Positions 63,828 to 64,000 of a stretch of 64,000 bases of DNA are shown here, piece after piece. The stretch lies in the NCBI RefSeq assembly GCF_003018235.1, contig NZ_CP027437.1. One strand, 5' to 3'. The stretch is from Escherichia coli. Lineage in GTDB: Bacteria > Pseudomonadota > Gammaproteobacteria > Enterobacterales > Enterobacteriaceae. The notes below the pieces were generated by a model that saw only the letters and a program-made list of their open reading frames with translations, had not been told where the DNA came from and ran no database searches. The translations under genes and the position numbers were made by a program. Within the stretch, counting starts at the first letter, position 1. Each line of letters begins with the position of its first letter.

Positions 63828-64000
63828 TTTGTTTATTTTTTAGTCATGAAGGCGACATCTATCGCCAATTGAAGGGCTGTTTTTTCCGATGTTCCAGGCG
63901 GAAGTATATCTGCCGCCCTGTTATTCATATTTAAATCAAGCTGACCTGATTGTGTATTTATCTTTCCATTTTCTGTTGCAGTAATATTAAAATTCTTACA
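63828..64000 (-). CDS. 3' end of an upstream minus-strand gene running off the window edge (unknown product; possibly a T6SS spike-associated gene)
   Basis: Hand-translated minus-strand frame open from the window edge to a TAA at 63828..63830 (..ALQLAIDVAFMTKK*); too short in-window to appear in the ORF track. Confidence 0.3.

Follow-up and report, generated by a model that had tools for sequence, protein, structure and literature searches.

The DNA analyzed here, referred to as the window, is a 64,000-nucleotide stretch of an Escherichia coli chromosome. Its last bases hold the end of a gene that runs off the edge, followed on the same strand by a chaperone gene, an rhs gene and a putative immunity gene. 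From the edge inwards, the features are as follows.

63833 to 64000, minus strand: 3' end of vgrG, last 55 codons and the TAA stop (translation; identity to the C-terminus of the product of L001:18174-20168, see below)
63783 to 63832, minus strand: spacer between vgrG and eag, 50 bp, AT-rich (sequence)
63330 to 63782, minus strand: eag, EagR-type chaperone gene, 150 amino acids, DcrB/DUF1795 (Pfam PF08786)
58647 to 63311, minus strand: rhs, predicted class I prePAAR Rhs effector, 1554 amino acids (open reading frame, Pfam and motif reading)
58139 to 58645, minus strand: putative cognate immunity gene, 168 amino acids (open reading frame with an internal ATG; assigned by position)

The edge frame and its neighbors

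On the minus strand, the edge frame runs from base 64000 through 55 codons without a stop, CKNFNITATENGKINTQSGQLDLNMNNRAADILPPGTSEKTALQLAIDVAFMTKK, and is closed by a TAA at 63835-63833. A preliminary description of this DNA had the open frame and the TAA right, but placed the stop at 63828 and counted 56 in-window residues where the translation gives 55. It also put the chaperone gene about 45 bp away, whereas the measured spacer is 50 bp, up to the eag ATG at 63782.

Does this frame encode anything? The two remaining minus-strand frames contain several stops each, and one frame of the plus strand has a stop-free run of 42 codons. The edge stretch is AT-rich (35.7% GC), and in intergenic DNA of this kind a frame may be open by chance. 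Fifty-five codons is short, and the fragment alone matches no Pfam family, as was anticipated when the in-window residues were described as not diagnostic. An open run of 55 codons appears in 1.35% of composition-preserving shuffles, and therefore the frame taken alone is weakly significant. However, homology is decisive. The 55 residues recur unchanged at the C-terminus of an annotated 664-amino acid VgrG that is conserved in many E. coli genomes, and the 168-bp fragment is present, as a single copy per genome, in 194 of 5426 of them. This already refutes a chance origin, for which virtually no room is left. The edge frame is a real coding sequence, and it is the 3' end of a gene.

The gene next to it fits the Eag-chaperone/Rhs operon that the preliminary description had proposed. 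The eag product matches PF08786 (DcrB) with E = 9.4e-19 and 68.2 bits against a cutoff of 27.2, and the gene is annotated as DcrB-related protein in E. coli genomes. It lies 18 bp upstream of rhs. Its assignment as an Eag chaperone follows from this gathering score together with its position before a prePAAR effector. Solved Eag structures exist. A phmmer search of PDB sequences with this protein had no match, because it is too divergent, and the family assignment comes from Pfam. The spacer in front of eag carries a Shine-Dalgarno-like AAGGA at 63798-63794, 11 nt before the ATG. A consensus scan of 63200-64000 found no promoters and no terminators, and a spacer free of promoter- or terminator-like sites is consistent with vgrG and eag being co-transcribed.

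The rhs gene is intact in the window, as is eag. The class I prePAAR effectors are defined by an N-terminal AARxxDxxxH prePAAR motif (PMC7773334), and the features sought here were that motif, a single transmembrane region before the PAAR domain, the PAAR domain itself, YD/RHS repeats and a PxxxxDPxGL core end. The window protein has AARQGDALLH at residues 7-16, a hydrophobic transmembrane region at about 19-72 (by eye), and Pfam matches to RHS_repeat (12 stretches), DUF6531, RHS and PAAR_motif (33.9 against a cutoff of 27). The core-end motif is PNPLSWIDPLGL, and a 117-amino acid C-terminal toxin domain follows it. By its motifs, then, the protein fits the class I prePAAR definition. Its closest solved relative is RhsA of Pseudomonas protegens (7q97), to which residues 287-1447 align.

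The toxin domain has no Pfam or NCBIfam family match. The same is true of the putative 168-amino acid immunity protein, whose ATG overlaps the rhs stop and whose coding sequence has a GC content of 23-34%. Its role as the cognate immunity gene is suggested by its position only. No complete E. coli genome in the collection covers the toxin/immunity region (58139-59000). Given that neither protein matches a family and no genome covers them, this looks to be an uncharacterized and uncommon pair.

A separate observation concerns the transmembrane segment of the Rhs protein. Residues 28-90 (window 63040-63230) have about 35% protein identity to the copies at three related loci (L001, L002, and L005), although the flanking prePAAR (1-27) and the start of PAAR (91-150) are 100% identical. 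In 81 E. coli genomes the window allele of this segment is found with an identity of at least 99%, which makes it a common haplotype and L001 the mosaic one. This cassette-like divergence falls on the part of Rhs that is bound by the chaperone, even though Eag itself is 97-100% identical to the copies at the same three loci.

The complete gene in related genomes

The window holds only the last 168 bases of the gene, so the rest of it was sought in relatives. A search of E. coli complete genomes with a 701-bp query, which runs from the fragment through the chaperone gene into the beginning of rhs, matched 212 of them at up to 99.9% DNA identity. The best match, NZ_CM149870.1 (locus L001), places the fragment at the 3' end of a 1995-bp coding sequence, L001:18174-20168. 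It is annotated as "type VI secretion system Vgr family protein" (WP_059341537.1, 664 amino acids), and its last 55 residues are identical to the window translation. The fragment therefore corresponds to residues 610-664 of a 664-amino acid VgrG. Window 56500-64000 is not covered to 80% or more by any complete E. coli genome in the collection. Since none matches the whole rhs region, the extension rests on relatives and not on the same strain, and the L001 protein was used for the profile tests of the full gene.

The fragment falls under a Vgr annotation in 40 of 40 cases among the matches listed. Two allele classes can be told apart: 78 genomes have the fragment at 99% identity or above, and 107 have it at 90-95%. 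Most of the matches listed for the lower class are at about 90%. The proteins of the two classes share 91% identity across their final 164 residues. The fragment DNA of the window is 100% identical to that of strain ETEC1738.

The preliminary description had suggested that this gene is vgrG, and that the sequence should be extended past 64000 and profile-searched for VgrG domains, with the lack of any type VI secretion system (T6SS) domain counting against it. The complete protein matches the TssI/VgrG models far above their cutoffs: TIGR03361 with 555.5 bits (cutoff 186.35) and TIGR01646 with 415.2 bits (cutoff 121.8). Pfam finds Phage_GPD at residues 41-350 (1.8e-96), Phage_base_V at 405-472 (1.9e-13) and Gp5_trimer_C at 489-594 (1.3e-25). 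In other words, the gp27-like hub, the gp5 OB-fold and the gp5-like C-terminal beta-helix are present in the order of a VgrG. The outcome that would have counted against vgrG did not arise, and the interpretation is supported. DUF2345, which had been mentioned as a domain to look for, has no Pfam match in the 664-amino acid protein, and neither has any other extra domain (E<=0.01). The absence of DUF2345 makes this a short, canonical VgrG that lacks an extension domain.

Comparison with known proteins leads to the same place. Sequence matches among solved structures include 9mlp_A (1084 bits), P. protegens VgrG1 (7q5p, E = 1e-138) and Pseudomonas aeruginosa VgrG1 (4mtk, E = 3e-134). An AlphaFold2 model built with 100 homologues has a mean pLDDT of 86.7 and is confident except at residues 1-16 and 633-664. 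When the last 131 amino acids were used to query the protein database only fragments were returned, and the full-length protein was used instead. With that query each of the best 120 homologues shows 91% identity or more (119 of the 120 at 99% or more), and the entries among them that are named by their source are all VgrG, except for one "hypothetical protein." One homologue sequence occurs on at least 1000 contigs. In a library of representative proteins, 17,624 match the VgrG at E<=0.001. As a feature, this vgrG is an already annotated and already understood gene.

The RhsE site and a second spike in strain 40EC

The window aligns with L001 across yddH-nhoA and yddE-nar, which makes it possible to place the operon on the chromosome. 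The order in L001 is ansP, two small open reading frames, vgrG, the DcrB-related gene, rhs, another small open reading frame, symE, ISAs1/ydcC, yddH, nhoA, and nar. In K-12 the same flanks (pqqU-yncE-ansP on one side, ydcC-pptA-yddH-nhoA-yddE-narV on the other) enclose the RhsE element, which comprises the rhsE pseudogene (b1456), ydcD and the ydcC H-repeat. What lies between them in K-12 is yncG, yncH and a truncated rhsE pseudogene together with ydcD and ydcC, with neither vgrG nor eag, whereas the window has the intact 3' end of vgrG followed by eag and rhs. Because the flanks are shared, what the window has is an intact version of the RhsE element. A literature search for rhsE and vgrE returned unrelated papers only. 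The "vgr" genes were reportedly first named at the RhsG and RhsE elements by the Hill laboratory in the 1990s.

Several small open reading frames surround the operon. Upstream of vgrG in L001 (17069-17952) are two that overlap on the same strand and encode 176 and 118 amino acids. Neither has a Pfam match, and the 118-amino acid product scores 30.9 bits with NCBIfam NF045617 ("putative T6SS immunity periplasmic lipoprotein"), below the cutoff of 43. They could be an uncharacterized effector/immunity pair. The idea that they duplicate the two open reading frames upstream of the main-cluster vgrG was rejected, as there is no similarity. Downstream of the rhs-immunity pair, at window 57275-57916, two minus-strand open reading frames of 114 and 94 amino acids resemble an orphan Rhs-CT/immunity module and have no family matches. 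The 187-amino acid open reading frame at window 56466-57029 has just one domain of an ISAs1/H-repeat transposase, the N-terminal DDE_Tnp_1_assoc, and is apparently a truncated H-repeat similar to ydcC, of the kind typical of Rhs element ends.

This setting prompts a question about the unseen part of the gene. What if vgrG is here a pseudogene, truncated, frameshifted or disrupted by an insertion sequence beyond base 64000, with the fragment as its tail and the operon left without a working dedicated spike? The RhsE site is prone to decay, as K-12 illustrates. In strain 40EC the rhs gene at this site is annotated as incomplete, in genome H75 the 3' end of vgrG abuts the rhs annotation with a coverage of only 85%, and the window itself has a truncated ISAs1 transposase close by. 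However, the 55 in-window codons contain no amino-acid change from an intact allele, and the identity with ETEC1738 extends to every base. In both carrier genomes with inspected feature tables vgrG is an intact coding sequence of 664-665 amino acids, and the uniform Vgr annotation of the matches listed (pseudogene flags aside) points the same way. The genes downstream, eag and rhs, are also undamaged in the window. Since the site has decayed in K-12 and 40EC a truncated vgrG is still granted a small probability, and we consider it quite unlikely. An intact vgrG is by far the better reading.

A spike needs a machine. The co-occurrence of a full T6SS with the RhsE-site vgrG was checked in one genome, that of strain 40EC, which has the allele of about 90% identity at the RhsE site. 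This strain has a complete T6SS cluster near yafC/dkgB, with tssA-M, hcp, tssH, tae4/tai4 and tagF/J/K. The cluster also has its own vgrG (739 amino acids), DcrB gene and rhs, and so two spikes from one strain can be compared. They are 73% identical overall, but the identity is unevenly spread. The two VgrGs are near-identical to about residue 520 and then diverge through the beta-prism and the C-terminus. The two Eag proteins are only 26% identical.

The closest solved VgrG to the window-locus protein shows the same pattern. This is 9mlp chain A (674 amino acids), which is named "Cytoplasmic protein." It is highly similar through gp27, the OB-fold and the first rungs of the beta-prism, to query residue 520 or so. 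The alignment then degrades and ends at 615, and the in-window part of the protein (610-664) is exactly what 9mlp_A does not share. These comparisons, which for the two spikes are correlative and come from one strain, fit a protein in which the machine-facing part is conserved and the tip, including all in-window residues, varies with the chaperone and effector.

The same genomes usually have a second copy of eag-rhs (the query is found at a median of two places per genome). In 40EC it is at the RhsC site between ybfA and ybgA (L002:20001-25136), and its Eag is 98% identical to the window Eag. No vgrG annotation was found in the roughly 780 bp upstream of this copy. Its lack of an annotated vgrG suggests that the RhsE-site VgrG may serve both loci.

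The spike tip and its probable cargo

Which part of the spike do the in-window residues represent? The alignment to P. protegens VgrG1 (7q5p) covers query residues 29-635, and the prism in that structure is modeled to residue 643 of the P. protegens protein (PMC8765631). By this alignment, residues 610-635 make up the final rungs of the gp5-like beta-prism, and a tail of about 30 amino acids (636-664) extends beyond the aligned part. The AlphaFold2 pLDDT is below 50 for residues 633-664, and a phmmer search with the C-terminal 40 amino acids had no significant match among the 150 top-ranking VgrG representatives, each of which stands for a 50%-identity cluster.

Perhaps, then, the gene encodes an "evolved" VgrG, in which the C-terminus, with the in-window part, serves as an effector or adaptor-binding module (DUF2345 or transthyretin-like) and carries cargo other than Rhs. 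The precedent is VgrG1 of EAEC (6sjl; cited in PMC8636562), which, like the window VgrG, is a spike with a cargo-determining C-terminal end. The last 30 or so residues of the window protein do lie outside the aligned prism, with no family match and unmodeled by AlphaFold2. However, the gp27, OB and gp5 domains account for the protein to about residue 635, and thirty residues are too few for a domain. EAEC VgrG1 has 841 amino acids and a DUF2345/TTR extension that carries Tle1, whereas the window VgrG has 664 and, as noted, nothing in Pfam beyond the canonical domains. The match between the two is distant (96 bits over residues 9-530). The cargo of EAEC VgrG1 sits on the extension, and that of the window VgrG would be expected to dock via PAAR on the tip of the prism. 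An evolved VgrG is thus scarcely credible here.

How such a spike would be loaded can be drawn from homologous vgrG-eagR-rhs systems, in which the mechanism has been established by experiment (PMC8636562, PMC8765631, PMC7773334). In Photorhabdus the gp5 needle of VgrG suffices for a VgrG-EagR-Rhs complex, with prePAAR-PAAR seated at the tip of the needle and the transmembrane region covered by EagR (PMC8636562). In P. protegens, EagR1 and RhsA are found at the tip of VgrG1 (PMC8765631). The prePAAR residues mediate the interaction between effector and VgrG (PMC7773334). In E. coli, delivery of Rhs-CT requires vgrGO1 and eagR, according to summaries of the original study (Ma et al., 2017, as summarized in PMC6730261 and bioRxiv 10.1101/2024.03.05.583533).

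By analogy, the window VgrG would form a trimeric T6SS spike, and its 55 in-window residues would be the far end of the gp5-like beta-prism plus a short tail. The prePAAR/PAAR region of the downstream Rhs toxin may dock on this end, the Eag chaperone may shield the Rhs transmembrane helices until firing, and the loaded spike would be fired by a T6SS whose genes lie at another place in the genome. Docking, chaperoning and firing are all carried over from the homologous systems. What the present analysis itself shows is the identity of the gene, its domains and its synteny, together with the presence of a complete T6SS in one carrier and a modular pattern of divergence between this VgrG and that of the main cluster. 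That divergence would suit the model, with a conserved N-terminal four-fifths for a shared machine and a divergent C-terminal fifth that pairs the spike with its own Eag and Rhs. A conserved body with a tip that varies along with Eag and Rhs supports the suggestion, already made in the preliminary description, that vgrG ties the effector to a specific spike, with the reservation that the support is correlative and from one strain.

The operon has close counterparts. The E. coli orphan vgrG-eagR-rhs-ct islands (VgrGO1/EagR/Rhs-CT) are from the same species, lie outside the main T6SS cluster like the window locus, and have the same gene order of vgrG, a DUF1795/DcrB eagR, a PAAR-Rhs gene with a variable C-terminal toxin and an immunity gene. 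One difference is that the window toxin domain matches no named Rhs-CT family. The window-locus VgrG is a likely candidate for the published VgrGO1. The vgrG1-eagR1-rhsA operon of P. protegens Pf-5 (7q5p, 7q97; PMC8765631, PMC7773334) is also in the same order, and both Rhs proteins combine a prePAAR motif, one transmembrane region and a PAAR domain as expected of class I prePAAR effectors. However, Pf-5 VgrG1 is less identical to the window VgrG than the enterobacterial homologues are, the C-terminal tails are unrelated in sequence, and the Pf-5 operon has been described beside other T6SS genes whereas the window operon is an orphan island at the RhsE site.

The tail itself invites speculation. 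It follows the beta-prism and differs from the main-cluster VgrG of 40EC. What if residues 633-664, approximately, are a dedicated recognition element for Eag-Rhs, beyond the generic contact of PAAR with the tip? This could let one orphan spike serve both the Rhs of the RhsE site and the Eag-Rhs of the RhsC site, which is without a vgrG of its own. As a candidate role it is rather unlikely.

A far stronger case can be made for the gene as a whole. It is highly probable that the edge frame is the 3' end of vgrG (tssI), which encodes a T6SS spike, that a vgrG-eag-rhs-immunity operon at the RhsE site of E. coli begins with this gene, and that the tip of the spike would dock its own Rhs and Eag. 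Beyond correct annotation, the importance of this is small. Nevertheless, with vgrG confirmed the picture of the operon is complete: spike, chaperone, Rhs toxin, and immunity, in an intact form of the RhsE element that is left in K-12 only as a pseudogene. For studies of the window Rhs toxin, whose C-terminal domain and immunity protein belong to no recognized family, the presumed delivering spike now has a name.
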